Source of the DNA: Ktedonobacteraceae bacterium
GTDB taxonomy: Bacteria > Chloroflexota > Ktedonobacteria > Ktedonobacterales > Ktedonobacteraceae
Reading direction: 5' to 3'
Length of the DNA: 64,000 bases
Assembly (NCBI GenBank): GCA_034438015.1
Contig: DAOTTD010000185.1
Coordinates: forward strand, 31,908-95,907
Shown here: positions 2,102-61,047 of the stretch, in pieces
How positions within the stretch are numbered: position 1 is the first letter of the stretch
Layout of the letters: every line of letters starts with the position of its first letter
The notes under the pieces: model-generated
Seen by the model: the letters and a program-made list of their open reading frames with translations, nothing else
Databases searched by the model: none
Told to the model about the DNA's origin: nothing
Made by a program: the position numbers and the translations under genes

Positions 2102-2486
2102 ATATCTTTCATCCCCACACAATTTGGTAGTCATAACACGGTACATCTGTGCCTCTCGGCACTTGTACAGCAAAGGTACTATAACAGTACAGCCTGTTTT
2201 TCCTGTCAGGCCATTGTACCACGCCAACAGTGGCACTGTGACCATTCAGCGTGTATTGCCGGTGCGAATCTTTCCCGTTTAGCCTGGCATTCCATACGCT
2301 TGTAGACACTCTCTAACAACGGATCAGGCCGTGGGAATGGCACAAAATCGGGACTCTCTGGTGAGAGGCATTGCATGTGATACGGAGAGATTGCGGTACC
2401 AGGCAAAGAGGTACATGATATGGCTATTTTTTGACGGTTGTGTTACAGTAGAACAGGAAAACAAGCAGATGCAAGGGAGATCACCC

Positions 2487-3569
2487 ATGGCAGAACTGGT
2501 CTGGAAAGGCAAGCGCTGGCCTCTCGACCATCATGCGCACTCCTCATCCGAGTCGGCTCTCGTGTATCCAGCACCGTCTCTGATCACCCAGGCTTACTAC
2601 TATGGACAGGCAAGAGAGATCCAGGCAGGCGCAGAATGCTCATCGCCTTCCAGCTGGTACAACCGCCTGCTTCATGGCGATAAGAGCAGTATCTTGCCAG
2701 CCCTGCAACCTGAGTTTGCAGGCGCCGTCGACCTGATCTACATCGACCCACCCTTCATGACTGGTCGCACGTTTAGCACCGGAGAGCGGGTTGCTTACAG
2801 CGATACCTGGAAGAACGACCTGGATCGCTACCTACAATGGCTGTATGAGACGCTGCACCAGCTCTACACACTGCTCGCGCCGGAGGGGAGCCTCTATATC
2901 CATCTCGACTGGCGCGTTACCCATTATGCAAAGATCATGCTGGACGAGATCTTCGGTACGAGCATGCAGGTCAATGGCCCAGGTTTCAAAAATGAGATCA
3001 TCTGGCACTACCAGTCGGGCGGGCGCTCACAGAAATATTTTGCGCGCAAGCACGACACCATCTTGCTGTACACAAAATCCAGCCAATACTGTTTTCATGG
3101 TGAGCGCGTGGGCGTACGACGGGGCAAGCAGAAACGCAACCATATGCGCAAGGAGGTGGGACTCGATGGTCGTGTCTCATGGAGCATTCGTTCTGCCGGT
3201 CGCATCTACACATACAGCGAAGACGCTACAATGGCGCTGGCCGACGTCTGGAGCGATATCGGCCATCTTCACCAACGAGACCCCGAGCGCACCGGGTACG
3301 CGACCCAGAAGCCAGAGGCCCTACTAGAACGGATCATCCTGGCATCCTCCGAAGAAAATCATCTCGTGCTTGATTGTTTCTGCGGCAGTGGAGTCATGCC
3401 CGCCGTAGCCGGGCGTCTGGGGCGACGCTGGATTGCCATCGATAAAAGCGAGCTCGCCATCGCAATGACGCGCGAACGCCTGCAGGCTGACGAACAAATG
3501 CAACCTTTTGCATTGCAATACGTGAACGAAAAGGGACACATATTGGACGCCTTTCAAAAGAGCAAGTAG
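2487..3569 (+). CDS. Beta-class N6-adenine/N4-cytosine DNA methyltransferase, no adjacent restriction gene
   Basis: Motif IV DPPF (LIYIDPPFMT) precedes motif I FxGxG (LDCFCGSGVM). N-terminal LVWKGK. ATG at 2487 follows a GGGAGA RBS. Confidence 0.85.
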   Translation: MAELVWKGKRWPLDHHAHSSSESALVYPAPSLITQAYYYGQAREIQAGAECSSPSSWYNRLLHGDKSSILPALQPEFAGAVDLIYIDPPFMTGRTFSTGERVAYSDTWKNDLDRYLQWLYETLHQLYTLLAPEGSLYIHLDWRVTHYAKIMLDEIFGTSMQVNGPGFKNEIIWHYQSGGRSQKYFARKHDTILLYTKSSQYCFHGERVGVRRGKQKRNHMRKEVGLDGRVSWSIRSAGRIYTYSEDATMALADVWSDIGHLHQRDPERTGYATQKPEALLERIILASSEENHLVLDCFCGSGVMPAVAGRLGRRWIAIDKSELAIAMTRERLQADEQMQPFALQYVNEKGHILDAFQKSK

Positions 3570-8492: not shown

Positions 8493-10178
8493 ATGAGTTC
8501 CATATCACACATCCAGCCAATCGAGACGGCGGTAGAGCCAACATGGCAGCGCTATCTTTTTGATAGTCTGTTCGCCATTGTGGGATCGTTGTTGATCACT
8601 GCAATTATCGCCCTATTGCACCTGTATCCACGCATTCCCAATATCTCAATTCTTTACCTGCTGATCGTCTTAGGATTGGCAAGCTCGCGCGGACGGTACG
8701 CGGCTATTGTAGCATCGATCATTGCCTTTCTTTCCTTCGATTTCTTCCTGGTGCCGCCACTCTACGTGTTTACTGTTGCGCATGCGGAGGAGTGGATAGC
8801 ACTCTTCGCTTTTCTGGTGACGGCCTTATTAACGGGACAGATGGCATCAACGCTACGACTACAGGCGCAGGAGGCGCGCCGTCGCGAACGTGAGACGGGC
8901 ATTCTCTACGAACTCGTGCGCACAACGAACAACGACGAGAGGCTTGAGCAGCAACTCAATACTATCGCCAATGCTATCGTGACGGTCTTTTCGTCGTGGG
9001 GGATACGCGAGTGCGATCTTCTCCTGCCCGATTACTATGGGATACTGACCATGCAGGCCAGTGCGCCACGTTCTACACAACAGGTCGGGCTGCCAATTGA
9101 CGAAAAGGAGATCGCGTTGCAGGTGATGAAGAGTGGGAAAGCCATCGGACTACACGATGTCGCCCTTGCTCCACAGCGACTGCCCGGTTTCTCGCCACGC
9201 ATCATCATTCACAGTTCGACGGCTGGCTACGCTGCGCGTGTGCGCCTGCTGCCACTGAAAATAGGGCAGCAGGTTGTCGGCGTCCTGCGTCTACGCATCG
9301 AGGGCGGTCCATTTCACCCGGCAACTGAGGAGTCGCTACTGGAAGAGCAGGAACGGGCTGATCCGCGCACAACCTTTTTCTGGACCTTTCTCGATCAGGC
9401 GACCTCGGTGATCGAGCGCGCACGCCTGCGCCGCGAGAGCATGCATGTCGAGGTACTCCAGCGTACCGATGCACTGCGTAAGGCGCTGCTCTCGTCAGTC
9501 TCGCACGATCTACGCACGCCGCTTTCGTCAATCAAGGCGGCGGCCAGTAGCCTGTTACAGCAGGATGTGCAGTGGAGCGAGGAGGAGCGGCACAGCTTCG
9601 CGCAGGCTATCGAGCGTGAAGCCGATCGGCTGAACCGGCTGGTGGGGAATCTGCTCGATATGTCTCGCATCGAAGAGGGCGCACTGAAGCTTGAGAAGGA
9701 CTGGTACGGGGTCGCCGACCTGATGCAAGATACGCTAGAACGGATGCAGCCTCTTTTGCAGCAGCGCGAGGTTCATACTCATATAGACAAGAACCTGCCG
9801 ATGATCGAATTTGATTATGTGCAAATGGACCAGGTATTCACCAACCTGATCGAGAACGCCGTCCGCTACACGCCAAAGGGGACACCAATCGATATAGCTG
9901 TGCAAAGAGAGGGAAAGCAGATCCTCGTCACTGTGGCTGATCGCGGTCCGGGCATTCCTGCCGTCGATCTTGAGCGCGTCTTCGACAAGTTCTACCGTGT
10001 GCAGCGGGATAAACATAACGGGAACTACCCGACCGGAACGGGACTGGGGCTGGCCGTCTGCAAAGGCATTGTCGAAGCGCATGGCGGACGCATCTGGGCC
10101 AGTCCGCGCGATGGCGGTGGCGTCGTCTTCTCGGTCCTGCTGCCGATCAGCCAGACGGAGAAGCTCTCCGCTCAATAA
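8493..10178 (+). CDS. Sensor histidine kinase, KdpD C-terminal type (TM/DUF4118-like + GAF-like + HisKA + HATPase)
   Basis: Four N-terminal TM helices, H-box SHDLRTPLSSI, N-box NLIENAVRYT, G-boxes DRGPGI and GTGLGLA. No adjacent response regulator. Confidence 0.85.
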   Translation: MSSISHIQPIETAVEPTWQRYLFDSLFAIVGSLLITAIIALLHLYPRIPNISILYLLIVLGLASSRGRYAAIVASIIAFLSFDFFLVPPLYVFTVAHAEEWIALFAFLVTALLTGQMASTLRLQAQEARRRERETGILYELVRTTNNDERLEQQLNTIANAIVTVFSSWGIRECDLLLPDYYGILTMQASAPRSTQQVGLPIDEKEIALQVMKSGKAIGLHDVALAPQRLPGFSPRIIIHSSTAGYAARVRLLPLKIGQQVVGVLRLRIEGGPFHPATEESLLEEQERADPRTTFFWTFLDQATSVIERARLRRESMHVEVLQRTDALRKALLSSVSHDLRTPLSSIKAAASSLLQQDVQWSEEERHSFAQAIEREADRLNRLVGNLLDMSRIEEGALKLEKDWYGVADLMQDTLERMQPLLQQREVHTHIDKNLPMIEFDYVQMDQVFTNLIENAVRYTPKGTPIDIAVQREGKQILVTVADRGPGIPAVDLERVFDKFYRVQRDKHNGNYPTGTGLGLAVCKGIVEAHGGRIWASPRDGGGVVFSVLLPISQTEKLSAQ

Positions 10179-11380
10179 GAAGAGAGAACCCTCTCAACCG
10201 ACTCTCTTCCAAATTCATGGACAAGTGTATGATAAATCCCCATTAATGTACCTCCACCCCAAGGCCCATGAGAAAACACGAACTCACACACATCTTCTAG
10301 AGTAAAAGGAATAGCAAAAAGCTTTTTGTTTTCCATTTTATCTTTTACTCCTATTTGCCAGTTTTTCATAATTTCATGGGCAGTTTTTGGCGATTTCATT
10401 AACCCACGTAATCCGCACATATAATATTCTGTATCCAATCCAAAGCCAAGAAAAAGAATATCAGATACAGAAAAATCACTGTTTTCAATTAAGCCTAATT
10501 CTTCAAAAAGGCCACGACATGCACAACGATAGACATCTGGTGCATCACTGATCGTGCTTCTATCCAATGGTCTGCTTAATCCTTCTTCAACTGATGTCAT
10601 GAAATATCCAGGGCGTACCCCCAAATTTCCTTCTCTCTGAGCAAATAAGATATATCCATCTACAGTAAGAAGAGATAAACCGATCCCGAAAGGGATGGGA
10701 AGAGAGGGAAAAAGAATTTCCCAATCATATCCCAGGATATACTTTTCCCGAAAGATATTCTCCTTCAAACATCTATTCTTTGCTAAGATGGTAAAATAAT
10801 CTGTGGGAAGAAACCACAAGTTCAACTTCATGTGTTCATGGACGGGTTCTCTACTCAATTGGTAGTTGGCAAGATGGTAGATATCCCCATTCCATTGAAG
10901 CAGCTTCCCGTTTATCTCATTTTGTGCTTGTTCTTTCTCTATTCTTCCTCTCGTTTGTTCTATCTCTTCAATAAATCTTATTGGACGAGAATCATAGAAA
11001 GTACGAATGTTCTGCGGGGAATATGTTTCCGTTCCATTCCCATCAAGCACTATTAAAGTGGTTTCAAGTTTTCCAAAAGAAAAAAAACCATTACTCTCCA
11101 AAGCAGGGAGAGGTTTTTTATCATCTGTCATACGGTGTCTTAACCCCAATTTCCTTGGCATATCGATCTTCGCATCATACTGCGGTGCTAAATCGTGTAT
11201 GTCGCAGCCAATGACCTGTGCAAGTTTGACGCGGTCTCTCCTTGGAATAACTTGCTCGCCAGCAATATAGTGACGCAACGTCCCTTCAGGAATGCCGGAT
11301 TCACGAGCTGCTTCTCGCTGATTTAGTCCAGCGACCGCAAGCAACATCCTGAGCTTGTTCGGGTGTGGTGCTTCTTGCAT
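10172..11380 (-). CDS. XRE-family HTH protein fused to a Nudix-fold-like C-terminal domain with a degenerate Nudix box
   Basis: N-terminal LNQREAARESGIPEGTLRHYIAGEQ (HTH_XRE). C-terminal VEEGLSRP...CACRGLFEELGL resembles Gx5Ex7REUxEExGU with RE replaced by RG. Gene is strongly AT-rich relative to its neighbours. Confidence 0.7.
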   Translation of the reverse strand: MQEAPHPNKLRMLLAVAGLNQREAARESGIPEGTLRHYIAGEQVIPRRDRVKLAQVIGCDIHDLAPQYDAKIDMPRKLGLRHRMTDDKKPLPALESNGFFSFGKLETTLIVLDGNGTETYSPQNIRTFYDSRPIRFIEEIEQTRGRIEKEQAQNEINGKLLQWNGDIYHLANYQLSREPVHEHMKLNLWFLPTDYFTILAKNRCLKENIFREKYILGYDWEILFPSLPIPFGIGLSLLTVDGYILFAQREGNLGVRPGYFMTSVEEGLSRPLDRSTISDAPDVYRCACRGLFEELGLIENSDFSVSDILFLGFGLDTEYYMCGLRGLMKSPKTAHEIMKNWQIGVKDKMENKKLFAIPFTLEDVCEFVFSHGPWGGGTLMGIYHTLVHEFGRESVERVLSSY

Positions 11381-11534
11381 TGCACGCTCCCTTTCGGCAA
11401 AATCTGAGCGATTTTTGGTGACTGTGTGATGACATCTGGACGATTTATGATCACATTTGAATGATTTATGGGCAATTACTTGCCATTTTTTCCCTGCTCA
11501 TTGGGTAGACTTCTGAGAGAAGCGAGAAGGCACT

Positions 11535-11840
11535 CTATCCCTCCTGACTCTGATGGTTGGTATGGTTGGTGTCTCCAACGTCTCCACGAGATGGAGGTTT
11601 ACGAGGTCCTCTCGGTCCTGGCTTGCGCGGGGTAGCAAGGAATTTCTCTAGAGAGTCAGAATACACAAACCACTCGCGGCTGAGTTGAAAGCCCTCTAGA
11701 GTGCCCTTTCTGAGCAGTTGTGCGAGATAAATCCTCGTCAAGCCCGACCGCTCTGCGGCTTGCGGCGTTGTTAGGTACTCGCGGTTTGTATCAATGTTTT
11801 TGAGCATACGCACCTCATAGCGGCTTTCAAAAGATCCCAT
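11535..11840 (-). CDS. Small excisionase/MerR-like (HTH_17-type) DNA-binding protein with a basic Pro/Gly-rich tail
   Basis: YLTTPQAAERSGLTRIYLAQLLRKGTLEGF helix-turn-helix. Start could be an internal Met (MLKNID). Confidence 0.6.
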   Translation of the reverse strand: MGSFESRYEVRMLKNIDTNREYLTTPQAAERSGLTRIYLAQLLRKGTLEGFQLSREWFVYSDSLEKFLATPRKPGPRGPRKPPSRGDVGDTNHTNHQSQEG

Positions 11841-11868
11841 GAGAGAAGTGTAGCATAATTAACATCCC

Positions 11869-11897
11869 TTGACAAATCTTTTTTCTCAAGATACAAT
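11869..11897 (+). promoter_or_regulatory. Consensus sigma-70 promoter (TTGACA-N17-TACAAT)
   Basis: TTGACA at 11869-11874, a 17-nt spacer, TACAAT at 11892-11897. An inverted repeat TTCTCAG-N13-CTGAGAA (11899-11925) overlaps the predicted transcription start. Confidence 0.6.
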
Positions 11898-12206
11898 ATT
11901 CTCAGGATAATTATTTTTCTGAGAAATCTAATGGAAAGGTGCTTATCGACTAACGGTCAGACGGCGACGGAGCGGCATATGGGTAGGCAGATGCCGGTTT
12001 GGCAGAAGGAAAGGCAGTAAGCATAGAGGTAGGTCGTCACCTCTGGCGGCTCCCTCATCCCTGGCACCTCGTCAGAGTGCTAGAGATGAGGGATGGACCC
12101 TCAAAAGTGAAATGAGTGAAAACAAGAACTCAATGAGGTGTGCGCCCCGCTCCAATGCTCTGGTCGGGATTGGAGCGGGACTAGCCTACAAGAAGGAGTC
12201 ATCTTC
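11898..12206 (+). other. ~300-nt structured leader / possible non-coding RNA upstream of the acidic ORF and tnpB-like gene
   Basis: Several stem-loops: GGCAT..ATGCC, GAGGT..ACCTC, TCCCTCATC..GATGAGGGA (12051-12093) and an 11-bp stem CCCGCTCCAAT..ATTGGAGCGGG (12146-12179) just before the RBS. Confidence 0.4.
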
Positions 12207-12599
12207 ATGCAGACTGATACTATTGTACCAACAAATGAAGTCATCGTAAAAAAGTTAGCGAAGGCGTTGTGTGATGAGGATGGTTACGCCAATGAATCCC
12301 ACAGCACGTTCGATCAAATGCAGGTCACAACCGTTGTCCCTTTACTGTCCGCCTTGCTAGAAAATCCTGAGTTCCAGAGAGGATTGGCAATCGGGCACGA
12401 GTTCTTTGATGAGAGTTATGAGGAAGCCCCACTCACTGAAGACGAGATAATTAAGGAAGTGGAAGGAAACTTGAATCGTCGTATGGTTGAACAAGATAAA
12501 AAGATCGCTCGTGTAATGGGCGATGAGCCAACCTCCTACTTCTACAACCTTGGATTTGTGATGGGGACCATCGACAAAGGACTCACCTATACACGCTAG
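12207..12599 (+). CDS. Acidic 130-aa hypothetical protein
   Basis: ATG at 12207 follows AAGGAG. Very D/E-rich; no motif recognised. Confidence 0.55.
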   Translation: MQTDTIVPTNEVIVKKLAKALCDEDGYANESHSTFDQMQVTTVVPLLSALLENPEFQRGLAIGHEFFDESYEEAPLTEDEIIKEVEGNLNRRMVEQDKKIARVMGDEPTSYFYNLGFVMGTIDKGLTYTR

Positions 12600-12634
12600 C
12601 ACGGCTTCAGGAGTGGCGAAAGGAGAGCGGCATC

Positions 12635-13927
12635 ATGCAACTGGTTGAACAGCACGTCATTGATCGCAACGATCCACGTTTTCCCGTGCTTGATGCCGCT
12701 GCCTTTGCGTCGAAGAATTTGTACAATGCAGCGAACTACGAGTACCGACAAGCCTTCATTCACCAGGGGATTTATCTGAACTACAACGAGGTGCAGAAAC
12801 GCATGCAGTCGAGTGACTCGTACAAAGCACTACCAGCCAAGGTCAGTCAACAAATCCCGATGGTACTTGACCGAAACTGGAAGGGCTTTCGAGAGGGGTT
12901 AGAAGCGTACTACGAAGACCCTTCTAAGTTTCTAGGGCGGCCCAAGTTGCCAAAGTACAAGCACAAGACGCAAGGTCGTAACATCCTGGTCTACACGATC
13001 CAGGCCATTAGCAAACGAGGCTTGAAACGTGGGCTCATTCAACCCTCGATGCTTCCGATTGAGGTGCAAACGAAGCAAAAGGATGTCGATCAAGTTCGGA
13101 TCGTGCCGCGTTCGGGCTTCTACGTCGTGGAGGTGGTCTACGGGAAAGAGGTCAAACAGGCAGAAGTCAATCCTGCTTTTTACGCTGGTATAGACATTGG
13201 AATGAGTAATCTGGTTGCGCTCACCTCAAACAAGCCACATTTCAAGAGCATCCTTGTTAACGGGCGTCCAGTGAAGTCAGTCAACCAATTCTATAACAAG
13301 CGTAAGGCAGACCTACAGAGCAAGCTCGGTCACACCGGTACAACGAAGCGTATGGAGCGCATGACGAACAAGCGGAACAGGCGTATCGAACAGTATATGC
13401 ACACTGCCAGCAAAAAGATTATTGATCTGTTGGTAAAAGAGGGGATAGGCGTACTGTGCATCGGGAAGAATGACGCCTGGAAGCAAGAGGCAAACATGGG
13501 CAAGCGCACAAACCAGAACTTTGTTCAGATCCCTCACGCTCGTTTTATTGCGATGTTAACCTACAAGGCGGAACTGGTAGGCATTCGCGTCGAGATCACA
13601 GAAGAGTCCTACACGTCAAAGGCATCACTCTTGGACCTGGACCCGTTACCGAAATGGGAGAAGGGCAAGAGCAATGAGAAGCACACCTTTAGCGGCAAGC
13701 GCGTGAAGCGTGGACTCTATCGCACATCCAGTGGACGCTACGTGAACGCCGACATTAACGGTGCTGGTAACACGATCAGAAAAGTAGCCCCTGATGCCTT
13801 CGGGTCGGAGGGGGTAGAGGATGGTAAAGCGGTGCTTGCATCGCTGGTAGTCCATCCGGTGAGGATTGTCGTTCCCCTCACGAAGCCGAAAAGCACACGT
13901 TTGGCGACGAAAGCAAGCGGTCAATAG
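12635..13927 (+). CDS. tnpB: TnpB-like protein (IS1341-type solo OrfB), non-canonical variant
   Basis: 430 aa. RuvC-I GIDIGMSNL and RuvC-III NADINGAGN. YTSK motif but no CxxC zinc-ribbon cysteines. The canonical RuvC-II xxEDL position reads CIGKN. Confidence 0.9.
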   Translation: MQLVEQHVIDRNDPRFPVLDAAAFASKNLYNAANYEYRQAFIHQGIYLNYNEVQKRMQSSDSYKALPAKVSQQIPMVLDRNWKGFREGLEAYYEDPSKFLGRPKLPKYKHKTQGRNILVYTIQAISKRGLKRGLIQPSMLPIEVQTKQKDVDQVRIVPRSGFYVVEVVYGKEVKQAEVNPAFYAGIDIGMSNLVALTSNKPHFKSILVNGRPVKSVNQFYNKRKADLQSKLGHTGTTKRMERMTNKRNRRIEQYMHTASKKIIDLLVKEGIGVLCIGKNDAWKQEANMGKRTNQNFVQIPHARFIAMLTYKAELVGIRVEITEESYTSKASLLDLDPLPKWEKGKSNEKHTFSGKRVKRGLYRTSSGRYVNADINGAGNTIRKVAPDAFGSEGVEDGKAVLASLVVHPVRIVVPLTKPKSTRLATKASGQ

Positions 13928-13951
13928 AACGCGAGATTTCGCTACCCAACG

Positions 13952-14173
13952 CTATAGTTTTTTGGAACTATAACCAGCATCATCCAGGGTCGTCTCGATC
14001 AGTTGCAGCGAGACCTGATCGGGATGATAACGCAGATGGACCGTCTTTGTGGGAATGTCGGTATTGACTTTTTCCACGCCGGGGAGCGCGCCGAGCGAGG
14101 TGTCGATCGTCTTGACGCAGTGCTCACAACTCACATCGGGAACGGATAGCGTGATCTCCTGTACCTCTGCCAT
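13952..14173 (-). CDS. copZ: Copper chaperone CopZ (HMA domain)
   Basis: 73 aa, metal-binding SCEHC motif, ferredoxin-like HMA length. Confidence 0.9.
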   Translation of the reverse strand: MAEVQEITLSVPDVSCEHCVKTIDTSLGALPGVEKVNTDIPTKTVHLRYHPDQVSLQLIETTLDDAGYSSKKL

Positions 14174-14216
14174 CGTAAAATCCTTTCAACAGCCGCAGTG
14201 GGCTAGATACTCTTTT

Positions 14217-14498
14217 TTAGCGATTTCCTGCAATATTGTAGAGCTGGACCAGTTCCTGGATAACCTCGCCTTCGCGGTCGCCCTTGATCCCTTCGGGCAC
14301 GCAGGTCTGCAGGTGTCCCTCTAACACGATGCTTTCCAGCTTCTCCAGGGCTTTACGCACGGCGTATGTCTGGCGCAGTACATCGACGCAGTATTTATCC
14401 TCCTCCACCATTTTACGGATGCCAGCGACGTGGCCCTCGATATAAGAGAGTCTCTTCAAGACATCTCGACGACGTTCATCTTGCATAGTACCCGACAC
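14217..14498 (-). CDS. csoR: CsoR-family copper-sensing repressor
   Basis: 93 aa. RLSYIEGHVAGIRKMVEEDKYCVDVLRQ...GHLQTC carries the C-H-C ligand pattern of CsoR/RcnR. Confidence 0.9.
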   Translation of the reverse strand: MSGTMQDERRRDVLKRLSYIEGHVAGIRKMVEEDKYCVDVLRQTYAVRKALEKLESIVLEGHLQTCVPEGIKGDREGEVIQELVQLYNIAGNR

Positions 14499-15893: not shown

Positions 15894-16544
15894 ATGAAAG
15901 GTGAAAAGATATTTATTATGCAGAATAAAGCATCGCGTGCCTATATAGCACTGCTCGCATCGTGCCTGAGTCTCGGCCTGGTACTCTTTGTCGCAGTCGG
16001 GACCGCCTCAGCCCATGCCAAAGTGATCGACTCCACACCGAAGGCCGATTCGACCATCACGAAGGAGCCTGCCAGTATACAGGTCACGACGGCGGAGAAC
16101 ATGACTATCGACCCGAAGCAGACCAATCTATTTGTTTATGGACCCAACGGTGAGCTTATCAGTCTAGGAAACGCCACCATTGATATCAACAACCCGATTC
16201 ACATGTCCGTGAAGATCAAAACTGGTGCGGGCAATGGTATCTACATTGTACACTGGATCACCAAATCGGCGGACGATGGCGATCCAGATGAAGGCGCATT
16301 CGCGTTTACTGTCAATCCCAACGCGGTCCAGGCGCCAGCCAGCAAGCAGACCACCGCAACGAACACGACAGCGATCAGCAATAGCAGTTCTCCCATTGTG
16401 CCAGCGATCGTCGTCGGCGTGATCGCCCTGCTGGTCGGTCTGGGAGCAGGCATCGGCATCGGGCGCACACGTCCAGCCGCTGCACGCGTTGATAGCAGCG
16501 CAGAGGCGACGCCAGAGGGCAGGGAGACAACGCCCAGGCCGTAA
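15894..16544 (+). CDS. copC: CopC-domain copper-binding protein with C-terminal TM anchor
   Basis: Signal peptide ending ASA|HAKVIDSTP (mature N-terminal His typical of CopC). C-terminal TM helix. Alternative start at 15918. Confidence 0.8.
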   Translation: MKGEKIFIMQNKASRAYIALLASCLSLGLVLFVAVGTASAHAKVIDSTPKADSTITKEPASIQVTTAENMTIDPKQTNLFVYGPNGELISLGNATIDINNPIHMSVKIKTGAGNGIYIVHWITKSADDGDPDEGAFAFTVNPNAVQAPASKQTTATNTTAISNSSSPIVPAIVVGVIALLVGLGAGIGIGRTRPAAARVDSSAEATPEGRETTPRP

Positions 16545-26140: not shown

Positions 26141-27070
26141 TCAGCCGTCCCGCGCGCCAACCTGGTGTAGATCGGACTCCTGGTCGCGCGCGGGCTGCAA
26201 GAAAGTGCAGAACGCCTGCGCGGCGCGCGAGAGTTGTTTATCAGCGCGCTGGATAAGGCTAAGCTGGGGGCGTAACTCGACACCAGCGATCGGCACCTGC
26301 ACAAGTTCGCCATTCGCCAGTTCGCGCTGAACCGAAAGCGACGAAACAATAGAGGTGCCCACGCCGCTGATCACCATCTGCTTGATCGCCTCGTTATCGG
26401 TAAGCGTAAACAAGGGATGAACCGGTATGGCGTGCCGGAGCAGCTCCTGCTCAACAGCCTCTCGTACACCACTGCCGGGCTCGCGTAGGAGCAGCGTTCC
26501 CTCACTAAGCGCCTGTGGCTGCACGGAAACCAGTTTACTCCAGGGATGTCCGGGCGCCACCACCAGGATCAGTTCATCATAGGCAAAAGCCCGCACTTTC
26601 AGGCCAGGAGAGAGCGTTGAGGCATCGACCTCGACAAGGCCGAAATCCAGGTTCCAGTTCAGCGTCTCGTCCACGATCTCCTGCGAATTGAGGATAGAGA
26701 TATGCAGATCAACCTGGGGATAGCGCGTGCGGAAACGCGCCACGATCGGCGGTAGCAGATAGACGCCCGCCGTCGTGTTCGCCGCCAGCGTCACCTCACC
26801 GCGCTCGACGTCGCGCAACGACGCCAGGGACTCCTCCATCTCGCGCTCCAGAGCAAAGATCCGGCGAGCATAGCCTTGCAGGACGCGACCAGCATGCGTC
26901 AGGGCGATGCGACGTCCCTGGCGCTCGACCAGCGCCAGGCCAATCTCATGCTCCAGGCTCTGAATCGTCTTTGTGACCGCGGGCTGGCTCAGACCCAGCT
27001 CCTCGGATGCACGTGTGACATGCTCAAGTTCAGCCACCTTCAAAAACACGCGCAAATTCTGCAGATTCAT
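26141..27070 (-). CDS. LysR-family transcriptional regulator
   Basis: MNLQNLRVFLKVAELEHVTRASEELGLSQPAVTKTIQSLE wHTH plus a substrate-binding domain. ATG at 27070 follows a GGGAGAGAG RBS. Confidence 0.9.
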   Translation of the reverse strand: MNLQNLRVFLKVAELEHVTRASEELGLSQPAVTKTIQSLEHEIGLALVERQGRRIALTHAGRVLQGYARRIFALEREMEESLASLRDVERGEVTLAANTTAGVYLLPPIVARFRTRYPQVDLHISILNSQEIVDETLNWNLDFGLVEVDASTLSPGLKVRAFAYDELILVVAPGHPWSKLVSVQPQALSEGTLLLREPGSGVREAVEQELLRHAIPVHPLFTLTDNEAIKQMVISGVGTSIVSSLSVQRELANGELVQVPIAGVELRPQLSLIQRADKQLSRAAQAFCTFLQPARDQESDLHQVGARDG

Positions 27071-27294
27071 AATCTCTCTCCCAGTACATCCCCAATGCCG
27101 ACGAAATGTGGTAGTAACTTTATAGTCGCCATAGCCGCCTTGAAGCGATCTCAAAATAGAAACGTCATGATTTTCAGAATATAACCCCCTGGCATTAGTA
27201 TTTTACACCATTTATTTTGCAGATGGAACGAGAGCATTTCGTTTATGCAGGTCTATTCAATTACGTCATCTTTTTTCGTTACTCCAGGGAGGCA

Positions 27295-27364
27295 TCCTAT
27301 AGTACAGATCGGTAGAAAACATCGACAGAATGCGGTCCTATAGTGCATAATGAAGAAACGTTTC
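27295..27364. promoter_or_regulatory. Direct repeat pair plus a 10-bp palindrome in the LysR / zinc-ribbon divergent region
   Basis: TCCTATAGTACA (27295-27306) and TCCTATAGTGCA (27336-27347), 11 of 12 bases identical. GAAACGTTTC palindrome at 27355-27364. Confidence 0.3.
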
Positions 27365-27429
27365 TATTTTAGAAGAGATGTAGCGTCTTTTCGGCGTTCG
27401 GCCATTCGCGAGTAGGAAGCGTCTGTGAG

Positions 27430-28038
27430 ATGAAACTCTGTCCGCAATGCAATTTCGAAAATATCAGAAACAGTTTTTATTGCGAGCGCTGTGGCACGCT
27501 GTTGCCCGCCAATAAGGCGCAAGCGACGAAGACAACGGCTCCATCACGAGTCCAGGAGTCTATGCTGCCCTTGTTGGAGATATATACGCCAACGCCACCT
27601 CCACCACCCCCGCTACCCCCTGGGATCGTATATTCTCAGCAGGTGATCGAGTCTTTGCCTTCGCACGCGAGCAGTGTCCTGGATATCACTGTACGCGTAC
27701 TCCTCTACCTGACCGGTACGCTTATCGCCTCCTTCGGACTGTTCGGATTTCTCACCGCGTTCATGAGCACCTCGGCGGCCATCGTGGGCTTCTTATTCCT
27801 ATTTATGAGTAGCGTCGTTATCCTGGTCATCGCACTCATCCTGCACCTGGTGCCGTACCTGTCCTGGTGGCAGCGGCTGGTGGGCATGCTCACGGTCACA
27901 GGGGTGATATTTGTCGTCTTGCTCATTGGAGCAGCTATCGTCAGCAAGCAGGGAAGCGGTAGTAAGGCACCGGATGTCATCTATGGTAGCATCGTCACCA
28001 TCTATGGCGTCGTATTGGCAGCAACCGCCGTGTGGTAA
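27430..28038 (+). CDS. Zinc-ribbon membrane protein
   Basis: N-terminal CPQC-x13-CERC ribbon, a Pro-rich linker (PTPPPPPPLPPG) and about 4 C-terminal TM helices. Confidence 0.65.
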   Translation: MKLCPQCNFENIRNSFYCERCGTLLPANKAQATKTTAPSRVQESMLPLLEIYTPTPPPPPPLPPGIVYSQQVIESLPSHASSVLDITVRVLLYLTGTLIASFGLFGFLTAFMSTSAAIVGFLFLFMSSVVILVIALILHLVPYLSWWQRLVGMLTVTGVIFVVLLIGAAIVSKQGSGSKAPDVIYGSIVTIYGVVLAATAVW

Positions 28039-34967: not shown

Positions 34968-36389
34968 ATGATGCAACAGAAACACAGGCACTATCTACTC
35001 GATATCTTGCTGCTCCTGCTCGTGAGCGCGCTCCTCTACTATGGCGTGTTCTGGAAAAACCTGAACGTGCTCAGCGGAGCCGAGAACGATACGGATGCTG
35101 CAAAGTACGAGTGTTACGCCGTCGCATTCTGGCACGGGCAGGCGGCGACGCGTGCTCTGCCGGCGGCTCAGTGCTCTTTTCTCACCCATCCAACTACGCC
35201 ATCGATCTCTCAGGGACAGATTGTGCAGAGCATGAAGCGCTACGGTATGCCAGATGGACTGGTCCAGTTCGTGGCGAACCAATCAGCCACGCAGCCTTTC
35301 CACGCCCTGCCACATGAGTATCCATTGTTGACGCTGATACCGTTCTCGCTCGGGCTGGTTGCGCCCTATGACTGGTACCTGGTCGCTTTTGCGTTGTGGA
35401 TGATTCTTTTCATTGCAGCTACCTACTTTGTGCTCAAGCGCTTTGCCTCCGATGGAGCTGCGTATGCCTTCGCGTTCTACATGGTCGTTGGCTGCTGGGT
35501 GACGGGGGCGGGACGCTTCGATATTCTCCCTTCGGCCCTCACCTTGCTTGCCATACTCTGCGCCGAACGAGCGCGCTGGCGATGGGCCTTTGCGCTGCTC
35601 GCGCTTGCGACGCTGCTCAAATTTTATCCTGTCGTGCTGCTAGTACCGTTTCTTATCGCGCAACAGACACAACTTAAAGAAAAGTGGTATGTATGGTCCA
35701 GATTTGTGCCGTTGGTAGTGTTTGTAGCGATCTGCGCGCTCGTCACAGCGGTCTCGCTGCTGCTGAGCGTCGAGGGGACGCTCGGTCCGCTCGGTTATTT
35801 CGGCACGCGTCCGATTGAGTTGGAGTCCAGCCTGGCATCGCTGGTGTGGGCGGTCAGTGCGGTATTCGGAAAAGCAGTTACCTACCAGTTCAGTTTCGGC
35901 TCGCGCAACATCCTCAGTCCGCTCTCGTCCGATGCGACGCAGCTGGGAACGGTTGTGCTCCTGGGAGGATTGCTCTATACGTTCTGGCTGCAATGGCGGG
36001 CGAAGATCGGCCTGGCGCTGGCCTGCCTGTTGACGCTGCTGATCGTGATGCTCACGGGCAAGATCTTCAGCGCACAGTACCTGATCTGGGTCGCTCCGCT
36101 GGTCGCTTATATAGGCAGGGGAAACTGGCGCTGGCTCGTCGGGTGGGGGAGCGTGTGCCTGCTCACGACGGTGATCTATCCGTTTCTTTACGAGCCAAAC
36201 AAATTTCCGTTCGGTGCGCTGCTGCCACCATTCAGCGCGACGGTGCTTGTACGCAACGTGCTGCTGTTGCTCTTCACCTGCGCTCTGCTCTATGCGGCTT
36301 CGCGGAGTCGTCGGCGGGTTGAGGAAAGCGGAGCGATGGAAGATACTACAGCACAGCTTGCCAGCCCGGTACTCGACAAGCGAGGATAA
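34968..36389 (+). CDS. GT-C fold membrane glycosyltransferase-like protein (DUF2029/GT87-like); paralog of 58411-59853
   Basis: Polytopic. Shares blocks with the paralog: YECYA/YQCYA, FHALPHEYPLL/FHALPHEYPML, KFYPV, SAQYLIWV/SPQYLIWV. Start is ambiguous (34935 or 34968). Confidence 0.6.
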   Translation: MMQQKHRHYLLDILLLLLVSALLYYGVFWKNLNVLSGAENDTDAAKYECYAVAFWHGQAATRALPAAQCSFLTHPTTPSISQGQIVQSMKRYGMPDGLVQFVANQSATQPFHALPHEYPLLTLIPFSLGLVAPYDWYLVAFALWMILFIAATYFVLKRFASDGAAYAFAFYMVVGCWVTGAGRFDILPSALTLLAILCAERARWRWAFALLALATLLKFYPVVLLVPFLIAQQTQLKEKWYVWSRFVPLVVFVAICALVTAVSLLLSVEGTLGPLGYFGTRPIELESSLASLVWAVSAVFGKAVTYQFSFGSRNILSPLSSDATQLGTVVLLGGLLYTFWLQWRAKIGLALACLLTLLIVMLTGKIFSAQYLIWVAPLVAYIGRGNWRWLVGWGSVCLLTTVIYPFLYEPNKFPFGALLPPFSATVLVRNVLLLLFTCALLYAASRSRRRVEESGAMEDTTAQLASPVLDKRG

Positions 36390-36843
36390 TATTCCGGACA
36401 AAGCATAAGAATGTTGAACCTTCGCTTTTTCTCGCAATTTGCTGTGCTTACATTATTATCTCAGCAATCGTTTTAATTCTTTATAGATAAAGAAGGTAGA
36501 ACTCTTTATTAAACGCCGTCCATTAGAGGCTGTAGATATAGGAGAGTTCCTCTGTGTGCAAGCGGGCAGCACATTCTCAAAGCCCTCTGCAAGCCCATGC
36601 ACAGGAACCATGCTCTTTTCTACAAGATCTTCGCAATACTCTATAAATAAGGATCATTGTACTTGATAAGTTCCATATTTTATGTTACCATTTCCTGGTT
36701 GAGTCCTTTTACTAAGTGGCTGTTAAGATTTCCACAGCCATCGCCAAATCGTGTTGTCATCTCCCTGTTTATTGTGTACGTTTTCTCTATTTGTAGGATG
36801 TAATACTTCTCTCTATGGTAGAGATTATCCTAGGAGGGATCTC

Positions 36844-37875
36844 ATGGCGACCGGAGCACGCGTGGAGGATGTCCACATTATCTGGATAACGGCTGGATTG
36901 GGCTGTGATGGGGATACCATCTCAATCACCGCAGCTACCCAGCCCAGCATTGAGGATGTATTGTTGGGTGCCATACCGGGGCTACCCAGGGTGCATCTTC
37001 ACAATCCCGTCCTGGCCTATGAAACTGGTGACAGCTTTATGTCCTGGTGGTATAAGGCGGAAAAAGGCGAACTTGACCCCTTTGTGCTCGTCGTAGAAGG
37101 CTCCATTCCCAATGAGCGCATCAAATCCGAGGGATACTGGGCGGCGCTCGGCACCAATGAGGCGACGGGGCAGCCCATCACGACCACTGAATGGGTCGAC
37201 CGCCTGGCACCGAAAGCCTGGGGAGTGGTGGCGATCGGAACGTGCGCGACCTATGGAGGCATACATGCCATGGCGGGAAATCCGACCGGGGCAATGGGCC
37301 TTCCCGACTATCTGGGATGGAACTGGAAGTCGCAGGCAGGCCTGCCCATCGTCTGCGTTCCTGGCTGCCCGGTACAGCCCGATAACTTCACGGAGACGCT
37401 GCTCTATCTCCTTTACCAGGCAGCAGGTCTCTCGCCTATGATTCCGCTCGATGAGGCGCTGCGGCCAACATGGCTCTTCGGTCAGACCGTGCACGAGGGC
37501 TGTGATCGCGCGGGCTACTACGAGCAAGGCGACTTTGCCGAGGAATACGGCTCACCCAAGTGCATTGTGAAGTTGGGCTGCTGGGGTCCTGTCGTGCAGT
37601 GCAATGTCCCCAAACGCGGCTGGATGGCTGGCATCGGTGGCTGCCCGAACGTGGGTGGCATCTGCATAGGTTGTACCATGCCTGGCTTCCCGGACAAGTT
37701 CATGCCCTTCATGGACGAGCCACCGGGCGCGAAGTTCTCGTCCTTCGCGGTACGCACCTACGGTGTTACGATTCGCACGCTGCGCAAGTTCACGAAGGAC
37801 ACATTGAACAAAGAGCCTTCGTGGCGGCATACGGGCACGCAGCTCACCACGGGATATAAGCCGGTACAGCACTGA
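36844..37875 (+). CDS. hhyS: [NiFe]-hydrogenase small subunit, group 1h (high-affinity, actinobacterial-type)
   Basis: No Tat signal. WITAGLGCDGD proximal-cluster motif and multiple Cys ligands (GTCATYGG, CPVQPD, GCxxxGxCIGC). ATG at 36844 follows AGGAGGG. Confidence 0.9.
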   Translation: MATGARVEDVHIIWITAGLGCDGDTISITAATQPSIEDVLLGAIPGLPRVHLHNPVLAYETGDSFMSWWYKAEKGELDPFVLVVEGSIPNERIKSEGYWAALGTNEATGQPITTTEWVDRLAPKAWGVVAIGTCATYGGIHAMAGNPTGAMGLPDYLGWNWKSQAGLPIVCVPGCPVQPDNFTETLLYLLYQAAGLSPMIPLDEALRPTWLFGQTVHEGCDRAGYYEQGDFAEEYGSPKCIVKLGCWGPVVQCNVPKRGWMAGIGGCPNVGGICIGCTMPGFPDKFMPFMDEPPGAKFSSFAVRTYGVTIRTLRKFTKDTLNKEPSWRHTGTQLTTGYKPVQH

Positions 37876-58410: not shown

Positions 58411-59853
58411 CTATGAATCAGAGATCGCCTCAACCTCCCCAGGCTCCATCTTCTCTGGCACAGCCTTCCTGCGTACGCTGGAGATCAGGATGGCCAGGAC
58501 GAAGCCAAACAGGATGAAGTTGCGCAGCGTCGTTACGGGGTAGAACCAGGGTACGGATGGAACGCCCATGATGGAGCCAGATGCAGACATATTATAGATA
58601 AACGGATAAATGAAGGTCGTCAAAGCGCCGATAGCGGCCCAGGGAACGATCCAGCGCAGATTGGAGCCGCCGATAGAGGCCACCAGCGGCACAACCCAGA
58701 TCAGATACTGCGGGCTAAACACCTTCCCCGTGACCATTACGATCAGCAGGGTCAGCAGCATAGAGGTAGAGAGTTCGATCTTCTTGCGCCATTGTAGCCA
58801 GTAGGTAAAGAGCAGGCCAGCAACCATCAATAGCGTCTCAATGAGCGAGATCGGTATGGAGTAGGCATGCAACATATTCAGGGAGCCGTATGTGAACATA
58901 TACGTGATGGGAGGAGACCCCAAGAAGTTCGAGAGCCAGATCAACGACGCCCCGAACGACTCCACCTGGATCGGGCGCGTCTGGAAGTAGCTGAGAGGCG
59001 CGATCGTCCCCTCGACATTCAGCAGCAAAGAAACGCCCATCACAATGATACACACACCAATAAACGTGGCCAGTGGCCGCCAGCGACGCCATGCGTACCA
59101 ACGCTCGCGCGAAGCGAGCTGCTGCGCAAACAGGAGCGGGATCAGCAAAGGGACAGGATAGAACTTGATCAAAAACGCCAGGGCCAGAGCGACAAAAGCC
59201 CAGACCCAGCGTCTCCGTTCGGCCAGGATCAACGTCGCCAGTGTGAGGAGCGACGGCACCAGATCAAAACGGCCCGCCGCCGTCGCCCAGCCACCGATCA
59301 CGAGCAGAACAGCGCCAGCGATAGCAGATCGGCGCGACTTAAAGCGCAGCAGGATGAAGTACATGGCGGCAGCAAGCAGTATCATCACTATAGCGAAGCT
59401 CACCTGATACCAGCCAGGCGGCGAGAGCAGCGCCAGGGTGAAAGGTATTAGAGCAAGCATTGGATATTCATGGGGCAGGGCGTGAAAGCTATCCGTGATG
59501 TCCTGCGTCACTACGAAGTTCACAAGCGCGTCCGGCGCATGATACTCATTGCGCAGGTTATCCGCGATCTGAGCATTCGTGTAGAATTGACCTTCAGTAT
59601 ACAAAATAAAGCCGCATTGCGACGCAGGATACGACTGCACAGCTGCCATACCATACAAGAAGGTAGAGGCATAGCACTGATATCTGGCTGCATCCGTATT
59701 GGTGTTAAAGATCTGCCACGAGGCGCCACAGTAGAGCAATATTCCCATCACTACTACGATAACAACATCCAACAGGTAGGGTGGTCGCTTATTCTTTGTT
59801 AGCCTGGACACAATAGTTTCTTTCGTGTCCTGTCCTTTTGTATCGATATTCAT
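58411..59853 (-). CDS. GT-C fold membrane glycosyltransferase-like protein (DUF2029/GT87-like); paralog of 34968-36389
   Basis: Shares conserved blocks with 34968-36389 (see that entry). Confidence 0.6.
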   Translation of the reverse strand: MNIDTKGQDTKETIVSRLTKNKRPPYLLDVVIVVVMGILLYCGASWQIFNTNTDAARYQCYASTFLYGMAAVQSYPASQCGFILYTEGQFYTNAQIADNLRNEYHAPDALVNFVVTQDITDSFHALPHEYPMLALIPFTLALLSPPGWYQVSFAIVMILLAAAMYFILLRFKSRRSAIAGAVLLVIGGWATAAGRFDLVPSLLTLATLILAERRRWVWAFVALALAFLIKFYPVPLLIPLLFAQQLASRERWYAWRRWRPLATFIGVCIIVMGVSLLLNVEGTIAPLSYFQTRPIQVESFGASLIWLSNFLGSPPITYMFTYGSLNMLHAYSIPISLIETLLMVAGLLFTYWLQWRKKIELSTSMLLTLLIVMVTGKVFSPQYLIWVVPLVASIGGSNLRWIVPWAAIGALTTFIYPFIYNMSASGSIMGVPSVPWFYPVTTLRNFILFGFVLAILISSVRRKAVPEKMEPGEVEAISDS

Positions 59854-60231
59854 CTATCGCATCTCATAAACATGGGCATCCTGTATACTTTTATTACGCG
59901 AGGCAGGGCAGGTTCATTCTTCTAGATCATATCCGCCAGACCCGACTACACGATCCACATTAACAGTATAAATTCACGTACAAAACCGATCGCAGGGGAC
60001 AGTATAGAGACGTCTCGCGCAGCCTGTCAAGGAACCTCCGAAAAAATACATACTTTTATGTATGCAAAACTAACTACGTTCTCATATATAACGAGCCAAC
60101 ATCGCTTATGATTTCATCATTTTAGTCCTAAAATCCCATGAGCCTGGCGGGCATGTGCGATACAATAGCTATATCGAGAAGAAAATGAGAGAACGAGATC
60201 ATATTCGACGGGCTTCTTCTACATTCTATTG

Positions 60232-61047
60232 ATGAACAGGGATCCGAGATCGGACGGGGACGGAAATCTTATGGAAAGACAACCAGAACAACAATTGACC
60301 GATAGACGAGAGATCAATTTTTCGAATGGAAATCGGGCCCAGGCGGTTCTAGCGCCCGTCGGCACTCAAACGGACGAACTGGCGTCCATGCTGGGCATGC
60401 TGGCGCCGAGGAACGCCATTCTCATCGCGGGAGGCGCTTCGGCGATGGACAAAGAGAGCGACGACAAACTTTTTCCGTTGCTCATGAATGGCGTCGTTCA
60501 TCCAGCGACCTCGCTCGGTGCCCTGATCATCGACGGCGGGACGCAGACGGGTGTGATGGCACTGATCGGTCTGGGGGTAGCGCAACAGCAACACAGGCCG
60601 CCACTGCTGGGAGTCGCGGCGGATGGCATGGTCCTCTATCCCGGCAAGACGACCGGCACGAGCACATATGCCGTCCCACTGGATCCCAACCACTCTCACT
60701 TTGTCCTTGTAGAGACTGATATATGGGGAGTGGAGACCGAAACAATGTACGAGTTGGTGCAATTTCTCTCGCGCGAGCATTCCTCAGTTGCTATTCTGGT
60801 CAACGGCGGTGAGATTGCCAGAAGAGAAGCATTGTATAATGTCCGCCAGGGGCGTCCACTGATCATCATCGAGGGAAGCGGTCGGGCAGCAGATGAGATT
60901 GCGCATGCCATGCGCAACGCAAAAGCCTCTTCATCCGATACTGAGCTTGCAGAGATCGTCGCAGATGGGAAGCTGCACCTCTTTCCCCTTACTGGCCCTG
61001 CAAAAGAGCTAGAGCAATTGACCTTGCATCTGCTTCAGCGGAGATAA
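60232..61047 (+). CDS. SLOG-superfamily protein, TRPM-like LSDAT type (predicted nucleotide-ligand sensor)
   Basis: Gly-rich Rossmann-like motifs ILIAGGASAMD, IIDGGTQTGVM, LVNGGEIARRE, LIIIEGSGRAADEIA. Assignment from motif memory, not an HMM search. Confidence 0.7.
   Translation: MNRDPRSDGDGNLMERQPEQQLTDRREINFSNGNRAQAVLAPVGTQTDELASMLGMLAPRNAILIAGGASAMDKESDDKLFPLLMNGVVHPATSLGALIIDGGTQTGVMALIGLGVAQQQHRPPLLGVAADGMVLYPGKTTGTSTYAVPLDPNHSHFVLVETDIWGVETETMYELVQFLSREHSSVAILVNGGEIARREALYNVRQGRPLIIIEGSGRAADEIAHAMRNAKASSSDTELAEIVADGKLHLFPLTGPAKELEQLTLHLLQRR

Follow-up and report, generated by a model that had tools for sequence, protein, structure and literature searches.

A strain-specific insertion between a sensor kinase gene and copZ in a Ktedonobacteraceae genome, probably a mosaic of a regulator module and a TnpA-less transposon copy

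The window analysed here is a stretch of 64,000 nucleotides from a soil Ktedonobacteraceae bacterium (GenBank assembly GCA_034438015.1, contig DAOTTD010000185.1, positions 31,908–95,907), in which an island of approximately 3.8 kb (window positions 10172–13971) lies between the gene for a KdpD-C-terminal-like sensor histidine kinase and copZ. The island is probably a strain-specific mosaic insertion, in which two unrelated accessory modules are fused within the kinase–copZ spacer. Module A (10172 to approximately 12000) would comprise a minus-strand Xis101–XRE402 operon with a bidirectional promoter, a candidate operator and a 5′ motif of approximately 65 nt. Module B (12306–13971) appears to be one copy of a TnpA-less element of the IS200/IS605 type, with a unit length of approximately 1.77 kb, carrying tnpB and a small upstream open reading frame (ORF) whose conserved 97-residue core is termed ORF97. 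Modules A and B each occur separately elsewhere; the island is not one element. As islands go it is unremarkable: a short patchwork of one regulator cassette and one transposon copy whose left end can no longer be recognised.

The insertion is real and specific to this strain, and both of its breakpoints were located by nucleotide alignment. In two genomes of the same genus, G002 (kinase 88% identical at the amino acid level) and G004, the site is empty: the kinase gene is followed by copZ, csoR and a BNR gene, with a kinase–copZ spacer of approximately 60 nt in G002 and approximately 165 nt in G004, so the two flanking genes are indeed adjacent where the island is absent. In three further genomes of the genus (G001, G003 and G005) the BNR gene directly follows the kinase gene, and copZ–csoR is absent. 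Synteny with G002 stops at 10171, so that the left breakpoint falls at 10171/10172; the insert begins with the first base of the XRE402 stop codon. The kinase stop is replaced by the island, changing the native ending ...SA to ...SAQ, and the kinase and XRE402 genes overlap convergently by 7 bp (10172–10178), as had been noticed from the sequence alone. The right breakpoint lies at 13969–13971, within the last codons of copZ, rather than at 13950, where the edge had originally been drawn. The native CopZ C terminus, ...AGYT(I/V)AK in both G002 and G004, here reads ...AGYSSKKL and is coded by the transposon right end. Approximately 70–165 nt of native spacer, the kinase stop and the last four copZ codons were lost at insertion; a search for the native copZ 3′ end inside the island gave no match, and no remnant of the native spacer was found there. 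The island is a clean example of two host gene ends rewritten without inactivation of either reading frame. Among the relatives, the orthologous kinase gene is broken by a frameshift or stop in L047 (G004) and L103 (G001).

An independent metagenome contig from ENA is 99.89% identical to the window, spans both junctions and is colinear with it from the kinase gene through a YtkA-like gene, and the middle of the island is covered by shorter JGI and Logan contigs. With the two junctions recovered independently, the island is therefore not an assembly chimera. It is extremely improbable that the island genes were present here ancestrally and lost by deletion in relatives, or that the junctions are an assembly artefact. 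Such an alternative would draw on the variability of the locus, from which copZ–csoR is wholly missing in three genomes, and on an assembly of 384 contigs with an estimated contamination of 8.8%; against this stand the recurrence of the same junctions in an independent assembly (9 mismatches in 8138 nt), the compositional deviation of XRE402, the replaced kinase stop and, likewise, the transposon-coded copZ ending, for which G002 and G004 share another, mutually conserved one.

Base composition also sets the island apart. The GC content is 55–61% in the kinase gene, 37–41% for approximately 1.1 kb right after its stop, and 46–51% from there up to copZ, confirming a sharp AT shift exactly at the kinase stop. 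No other 3.8-kb stretch of the window has a GC content as low as that of the island (46.9% versus a mean of 56.2%, s.d. 3.1), and among 1.2-kb stretches the minimum falls on XRE402 (40.7% versus 56.1%, s.d. 4.2). Relative to 1801 long ORFs from the whole 6.77-Mb assembly (genome GC 55.3%), XRE402 has a GC content of 40.9% (z = −3.8) and a GC content at third codon positions (GC3) of 35% (z = −3.4), placing it in the lowest 0.3–0.4%. The other island genes deviate mildly: GC z-scores are −2.7 for ORF130, the ORF that contains ORF97, −1.2 for Xis101 and −1.4 for TnpB, and the GC3 of TnpB is native-like (62%, z = −0.4). What the sequence-only reading described as an AT-rich island is therefore one very AT-rich gene with a mildly depressed remainder: the deviation in composition is confirmed for the island and XRE402, but the strong shift belongs to XRE402 alone. 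Nor does composition return abruptly to high GC at copZ, as that reading held, with 51% in TnpB against 53% in copZ. Further short patches with a GC content below 44% lie in the window at approximately 7100, 27000–27500, 36300–36900 and 59700–60300.

Table 1. Features of the island and its host flanks (window coordinates; aa, amino acids; HTH, helix-turn-helix)
Feature	Position	Strand	Description
Sensor histidine kinase, KdpD-C-terminal-like (host flank)	8493–10178	+	Pfam DUF4118, HisKA, HATPase_c
XRE402	10172–11380	−	XRE-type HTH at about residues 6–65 (HTH_3/HTH_31), disordered linker 69–95, predicted NUDT22-like two-domain Nudix fold at about 96–402
Xis101	11535–11840	−	Excisionase/MerR-like HTH_17 protein with conserved RKPGPRGPRK tail; first gene of the Xis101–XRE402 operon
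Back-to-back promoters, overlapping −35 hexamers	11847–11897	both	Plus: TTGACA-17-TACAAT (11869–11897, 11/12); minus: TTGTCA-17-TACACT (11875–11847), before Xis101
Inverted repeat TTCTCAG-N13-CTGAGAA	11899–11925	+	At predicted plus-strand transcription start; first helix of leader fold; candidate operator
Conserved motif, about 65 nt	11936–12001	+	5′ end of divergent transcript; module A
Segment of no known origin	12002–12305	+	Two strong hairpins (12051–12093, about 12146–12179), Shine–Dalgarno sequence AAGAAGGAG, 33 extra N-terminal codons of ORF130
ORF130	12207–12599	+	Core 12306–12599 is the conserved 97-aa TnpB-associated ORF97
TnpB	12635–13927	+	RNA-guided-nuclease family; rearranged RuvC-II; no zinc-finger cysteines
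Right end and presumed ωRNA scaffold	13742–13971	+	Ends ...TTTTTTGGAACTAT; similarity to all other copies stops at 13971
Would-be ωRNA guide flank	13972–13991	+	AACCAGCATCATCCAGGGTC; antisense to copZ 3′ end; position from right-end boundary
copZ (host flank)	13952–14173	−	Pfam HMA

The Xis101–XRE402 operon is widespread in the Ktedonobacteraceae, occurs in unrelated neighbourhoods and is AT-rich wherever it was seen. XRE402 has hundreds of homologues (43–91% identity), the named ones from Ktedonobacteraceae or Thermosporothrix, and in five other contigs the homologue lies 12–17 GC points under its surroundings. A Xis101-like gene is located upstream of the XRE402 homologue in L065, L091, L092 and L093; the pair is present in L065 (XRE402 91% identical), in G003 (89%) and in G115 and G059 (44%), with different genes opposite each time. 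Homology of XRE402 to L068 and L069 halts exactly at the stop codon, at 10172. The genome containing the window (G000) has four paralogues of Xis101. It also carries a fragment of a paralogue of the Nudix part at a contig end (C142:155–547), 50% identical to XRE402 residues 247–378 and with one in-frame stop.

The Xis loci of G115 and G059 share the promoter region, including TTCTCAG-N13-CTGAGAA, at 78–84% identity, and the sequence of L065 shows the bidirectional layout as well. The 65-nt motif is 78–85% identical in G003, where it lies beside the Xis–XRE402 pair, and in G077 and G067, and copies of approximately 55–65 nt (L093:902–966, L094:1501–1562 and L095:1501–1540) follow the pattern AAGGTGCTTATCGACTAAC...GGCGAC..AGCG...GGCAGATGCC. 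The motif occurs across different genera, near HTH regulator genes each time, matches no Rfam family, and could be an RNA motif of the 5′ untranslated region (5′UTR) or an operator region; for the inverted repeat we infer an operator role. Given their conservation with the Xis loci, the consensus promoter and the first 100 nt or so of the leader are therefore part of module A.

The AlphaFold2 model of XRE402 (48 homologues, pLDDT 87.5) comprises an HTH domain, a disordered linker and a large α/β domain. The top six Foldseek matches in the PDB are to human NUDT22 (best 5lor_A, E = 4.7e-14, TM 0.70), with target-normalised TM values of 0.68–0.72 over approximately 300 aligned columns, and most of the remaining matches are to other Nudix proteins. 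The predicted structure thus shows a Nudix fold, in agreement with the XRE::Nudix-like label first attached to the gene. Human NUDT22 is a UDP-glucose/UDP-galactose pyrophosphatase (PDB 5lor and 5lf9). The best structural match, over approximately 300 residues (TM 0.70–0.72, target-normalised), covers an N-terminal β domain and a Nudix domain, but sequence identity is only 14–15% and XRE402 is bacterial and fused to an HTH domain. The Nudix box has the consensus GX5EX7REUXEEXGU. In XRE402, R289-G-L-F-E293-E294-L-G296 corresponds to its second half, with Gly in place of Glu after the Arg, and the first half is interrupted; R289, G290, E293, E294 and G296 are invariant in the 48 homologues, and catalysis is plausible.

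In the NrtR family, an N-terminal Nudix-like domain is followed by a C-terminal winged-helix DNA-binding domain (PMC2330246). XRE402 similarly joins a Nudix-fold effector and a DNA-binding domain in one polypeptide, which suggests metabolite-responsive control of transcription. However, the domain order is reversed (HTH N-terminal, Nudix C-terminal), the HTH is of the XRE/Cro-C1 type rather than a winged helix, the Nudix part is like the two-domain NUDT22 rather than an ADP-ribose pyrophosphatase, and XRE402 has no link to NAD genes. The Nudix-box glutamates are conserved in XRE402, unlike in NrtR, so catalysis may be retained. The combination of an XRE-type HTH with a NUDT22-like Nudix domain would constitute a reversed NrtR-like regulator that is widespread in the Ktedonobacteraceae, and its persistent AT bias is odd for a common family of the lineage.

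Xis101 likely has a DNA-binding fold. Its residues 22–69 match models in four libraries: HTH_17 (1.3e-4; 22.5 bits, cut-off 27), TIGR01764 (6.8e-4; 20 bits, cut-off 28.8), phrog_1840 and PADLOC mad1 (1.2e-5). A profile search against PDB sequences gave chance-level matches only, and no integrase is present near the gene. Of the excisionase-like HTH described in the sequence-only reading, the HTH and the family resemblance stand, but a role as an excisionase is not supported. The same matches bear on a possible origin of the island from a prophage or an integrative or conjugative element, of which it would be a remnant, with Xis101 and the XRE repressor as a leftover lysogeny module whose integrase was lost. 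The weak matches of Xis101 to excisionase families and of XRE402 to phage repressor families fit this, as do the low GC content and strain specificity expected of foreign origin. It is nevertheless very improbable: the island holds no integrase and no phage structural or replication genes, no tRNA gene lies within 25 kb, no flanking direct repeats were found when looked for, the pair recurs in many non-phage contexts, and XRE402, with its 300-residue Nudix domain, is unlike the CI-type repressors of phages. Compared with classical genomic islands and integrative elements, the insertion is alike in its strain specificity, deviant composition and position between conserved host genes, but differs in having no integrase, tRNA target or direct repeats, in spanning only 3.8 kb and in being built from two smaller units.

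For module B, all-against-all blastn places homology between copies at about −440/−470 to about +1300/+1330 relative to the TnpB ATG. This extent defines a unit of approximately 1.77 kb consisting of a left end, ORF97, tnpB and a right end, and these alignments show a conserved ORF97–TnpB unit with its ends. By its predicted anatomy it is a TnpA-less OMEGA element of the IS200/IS605 type. Each complete copy carries a 9–13-bp hairpin, differing in sequence, at the same left-end position, followed by a conserved GGTRAGAGTC... and a conserved 5′UTR block. These hairpins were seen by folding each copy singly; RNAalifold missed the first of them because MAFFT cannot align stems of differing sequence. 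Several left ends are preceded, at a distance of 3–8 nt, by motifs resembling ATA(A/G)/CTAT, and the empty site of G004 contains TATAG, with no consistent motif among them. The right ends of all copies finish ...TTTTGGAACTAT and then diverge. In a consensus fold of the last 230 nt, 8 of 32 pairs show compensatory changes, and we infer that an RNA is made from the right end. Similar termini (...TTTTGGAACTAT) also occur in the genome containing the window with no adjacent TnpB (C8:32500, C120:47269(−), C212:8566(−), C216:31438(−) and C359:3078), and may be remnants or miniature derivatives. A right-end-like terminus is further located 8 nt before the left-end hairpin in L071 and approximately 170 nt before the element in L072 and C189.

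The flank that would serve as the guide of the window copy has no second copy with 0–1 mismatch in the genome, and the 16-nt guide-position flanks of 11 right ends likewise have no match elsewhere in the genome at 0–1 mismatch. Because these flanks match their own sites only, nothing suggests trans-targeting of the TldR type. No Y1 TnpA (PF01797) is encoded in the element; the genome has three, one of them in the window at 1181–1636. This TnpA gene (PF01797 E = 8e-33) belongs to a complete IS605-type element on the minus strand at 54–1636, 9 kb upstream of the island, whose TnpB (54–1181, 375 aa) has a normal TNB/zinc-ribbon domain and differs from the island TnpB. An N6/N4 DNA methyltransferase gene follows that element at 2331–3569.

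The island TnpB matches NF040570 (guided_TnpB) with 166.9 bits against a cut-off of 100, and Pfam OrfB_IS605 (PF01385) and Cas12f1-like_TNB (PF07282) above their cut-offs. Its six paralogues in the genome are 61–86% identical, the closest being that on C189 (86%). Residues were assigned by alignment to Cas12f and by an alignment of 17 clade members. D187 (RuvC-I) and D373 (NADIN motif, RuvC-III) are invariant, but the canonical RuvC-II glutamate position is occupied by glycine (G277) throughout the clade, so that the canonical D-E-D triad is lacking; invariant alternative glutamates are E285 (WKQE) and E323/E324 (EESYTSK). The C4 zinc finger is also missing: 16 of the 17 members have no Cys at either CxxC position, and one member has a single Cys. 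The alignment thus shows a clade-wide rearrangement of the predicted catalytic site. Altae-Tran et al. (2023, PMC10691335) describe major TnpB clades with glycine instead of the RuvC-II glutamate, for which an alternative glutamate is predicted to compensate; some large branches have also lost the zinc fingers, and activity is predicted for such enzymes (PMC10691335). With D187 and D373 conserved, and with a clade-wide E-to-G change and alternative glutamates that fit these rearranged clades, the island TnpB is probably active. An exapted, nuclease-dead TnpB of the TldR type was considered and rejected, as the catalytic aspartates and alternative glutamates are kept and the guide-position flanks have no second target.

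The closest known relatives of module B are the TnpB-only elements (IS1341-type, OMEGA) of the IS200/IS605 group, in particular the 'RIIr' clades of PMC10691335. Shared features are a TnpB of approximately 400–430 aa with a guided_TnpB match, the E-to-G change in RuvC-II, conserved alternative glutamates, an NADxN motif in RuvC-III, a conserved 3′ scaffold sharply bounded by variable flank, a subterminal left-end hairpin, multiple copies and the lack of an internal TnpA. The complete copies differ from them in carrying a 97-aa helical ORF between the left end and tnpB, the place of tnpA in IS605, and in lacking all four zinc-finger cysteines clade-wide; the window copy differs further in having no recognisable left end and an ORF fused to foreign 5′ sequence.

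ORF97 is a small gene, conserved and so far undescribed, that accompanies this TnpB clade; the acidic ORF of the sequence-only reading is not an orphan. It has 13 close homologues, most of them exactly 97 aa in length, and about 100 clusters in a 50%-identity library. Among 20 loci from metagenome-assembled genomes and soil metagenomes, about 18 have it approximately 10–70 nt upstream (36 nt in annotated contigs) of a same-clade TnpB. A profile of the family finds only four ORFs in the genome, all directly upstream of TnpB (C185, C71, C8 and C9; two are weak matches, E = 0.02–0.09). No significant match was obtained in Pfam, NCBIfam, PHROG or PADLOC, nor among PDB sequences (best E = 0.014 over 26 residues). 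The AlphaFold2 model is helical and of low confidence (pLDDT 60), and Foldseek returned no match with E < 1. Some distant relatives have weak Pfam matches to HTH domains in the same polypeptide. Small upstream partners (RHH/MazE) of rearranged TnpBs have been reported (PMC10691335); no mention of a partner resembling ORF97 was found in the main text of that study. Such RHH/MazE–TnpB pairs, which are archaeal and proposed to be toxin–antitoxin systems, share with ORF97–TnpB a small co-directional gene immediately upstream of a rearranged TnpB, but ORF97 is predicted to be all-helical and acidic with no RHH, AbrB or other family match, and the elements described here are multicopy with transposon-like ends in bacterial hosts (Chloroflexota).

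The 5′ part of the window copy departs from all others. Similarity to every other element starts at the ORF97 start codon, and the conserved left-end/5′UTR block is absent, so that no recognisable left end is evident in the alignments. At this homology break the window reads ...cacagcACG followed by TTCGATCAAATGCAGG, whereas other copies read ...cgcacatcATG followed by TTAGATCAAATGCAGG; the usual ATG of ORF97 is thus ACG, and the frame is open for a further 33 codons on the 5′ side, as far as a new ATG at 12207 with AAGAAGGAG in front of it. The internal Met38 of ORF130 has no Shine–Dalgarno sequence, unlike the ATG at 12207, and a 130-aa product is therefore likely. In local alignments, positions 12000–12306 score no higher against seven left ends than shuffled sequences do, save for a marginal match to the copy on C71; the second of the two leader hairpins could be a relic of the left end. 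The whole leader folds with z = −3.7, and the sequence-only reading had described it as a structured RNA. In relatives, however, it is unconserved beyond the first 100 nt or so, a part of the regulator module: in blastn comparisons with 17 ORF97 loci, L065 and 112 genomes of the family, the promoter and the 65-nt motif were all that was recovered, and Rfam gave no match at E ≤ 1 over positions 10000–14400. A riboswitch or a 5′ ωRNA was rejected for the leader, which is not conserved and has Smith–Waterman scores not above those of shuffled sequences.

In the other ORF97–TnpB loci with enough upstream sequence (12 of 12), the left neighbour is an HTH_17-domain gene, usually divergent. These neighbours are either short (60–84 aa) or long (260–306 aa, HTH_17 with a weak GNAT match), and a third type in L059 and L080 consists of a short gene followed by a GIY-YIG + HTH_17 gene. 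In the genome containing the window, an HTH_17 neighbour is found at three of six TnpB copies (C185, C9 and C312; genes at C9:13423–14343 and C312:6198–7055), against only about 55 HTH_17-like ORFs in 6.8 Mb by iterated profile search; the loci outside this genome are in L070–L086 and L059. The genes fall outside the DNA common to element copies and differ in architecture, and are therefore not simply cargo. The GIY-YIG + HTH_17 proteins (L059:4740–5327 and L080:1635–2267; 195–210 aa, homing-endonuclease-like) lie upstream of two different TnpB variants, and conservation is higher in the left flank with the GIY-YIG gene (95%) than in the TnpB elements (75%).

This adjacency allows a functional explanation, in which a conserved system would be made up of three parts, an HTH_17 regulator, ORF97 and TnpB, or in which the transposon targets or uses HTH_17 promoters. 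In one variant, a small helical protein and a divergent repressor would restrain an RNA-guided nuclease, much as in the proposed RHH/MazE–TnpB toxin–antitoxin systems. In this window, XRE–Nudix would add a nucleotide-sensing input. The frequency of the adjacency speaks for such an arrangement, as do the weakly matching HTH domains fused to distant ORF97 relatives, the position of all four genome-wide ORF97 matches directly upstream of TnpB copies and the precedent of small upstream partners (PMC10691335). We nevertheless consider it unlikely. The HTH_17 neighbours represent at least three unrelated architectures (short; HTH_17 with weak GNAT; Xis101 with XRE402) outside the common DNA; Xis101–XRE402 pairs also occur with other divergent genes and no TnpB; the closest TnpB paralogue, on C189, has neither ORF97 nor an adjacent HTH_17 gene; and the guide-position flanks match their own sites only, as for a plain transposon. 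Moreover, many of the ORF97–TnpB loci stem from a few related series of soil metagenomes and are not fully independent. A conflict-related cassette, also proposed in the sequence-only reading, found no positive evidence, PADLOC giving only the weak mad1 (small HTH) match and a Cas12f-type match to TnpB. The other proposal of that reading, a decayed or non-autonomous mobile element, applies to the TnpB part as a non-autonomous copy with no recognisable left end, but not to the island, which has two modules. Its description of the gene content as regulators and mobile-element-type genes only, with no integrase or TnpA, agrees with the genes found.

Several observations weigh against the fusion of two unrelated modules. 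No relative of the 304 nt at 12002–12305 turned up in the genome or among the loci retrieved. Comparison of the ribosome-binding-site region of the leader with the C71 copy is marginal (z = 3.65, below the best shuffle), and the left end may be very divergent rather than deleted. No intermediate state, with module A alone or the element alone, was found at the locus, the relatives searched having either an empty site or no copZ. The 12/12 adjacency means that the juxtaposition of Xis101 with ORF130–TnpB may not be an accident of fusion. For the proteins, every library match of Xis101 falls below the curated cut-off, and no Pfam or NCBIfam Nudix model matches XRE402 at E ≤ 0.01. All protein activities, like the ωRNA and the wiring of the promoters, are predictions.

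XRE402 would be a ligand-responsive repressor whose Nudix domain binds or hydrolyses a nucleoside-diphosphate-X compound, and whose HTH would act, alone or together with Xis101, on the divergent promoter. The element would move as single-stranded DNA by means of a Y1 TnpA supplied in trans, and its right end would have landed in the last copZ codons, rewriting the C terminus. With its left end and 5′UTR not recognisable, the window copy is therefore probably immobile. ORF97 has lost its ATG and gained 33 codons and a new ribosome-binding site, and lies downstream of the module A consensus promoter, from which ORF130–TnpB may be transcribed under the HTH regulators of the island. The element may have arrived first, or module A first, or the mosaic may have been imported preassembled by homologous recombination.

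Beyond the island, the ORF97 family is an unannotated group of approximately 97-aa proteins (about 100 clusters) whose genes, in elements of a rearranged, zinc-finger-less TnpB clade, are flanked by the left end and tnpB. To our knowledge, TnpB accessory proteins are barely known. If ORF97 modulates ωRNA-guided cleavage or transposition, it would be of interest for transposon biology and for the design of compact genome editors. The near-constant HTH_17 adjacency points to target selection or regulation beyond what the current IS200/IS605 model accounts for. A broader proposal, which we put forward tentatively and regard as doubtful, is that ORF97 is an undescribed accessory protein of this zinc-finger-less, RuvC-II-rearranged clade, carried in place of TnpA, that the elements are functionally tied to divergent HTH_17 regulators, and that the tie was fixed here by loss of the left end. 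If so, the tie could reflect insertion into regulator promoters, repression by the regulators, or a role of ORF97 as an HTH partner or TnpB inhibitor, and, with the left end gone, an RNA-guided nuclease would have come under the control of an XRE–Nudix/HTH_17 switch.

In the flanking sequence, the NCBIfam KdpD model matches the kinase at model positions 390–889 alone, with a score below the cut-off. Downstream of copZ, a CopC-domain gene (window 15894–16544) lies between the BNR propeller gene and the YtkA-like gene and has no counterpart there in five genomes of the same genus, which makes it a second strain-specific difference in the copper cluster.

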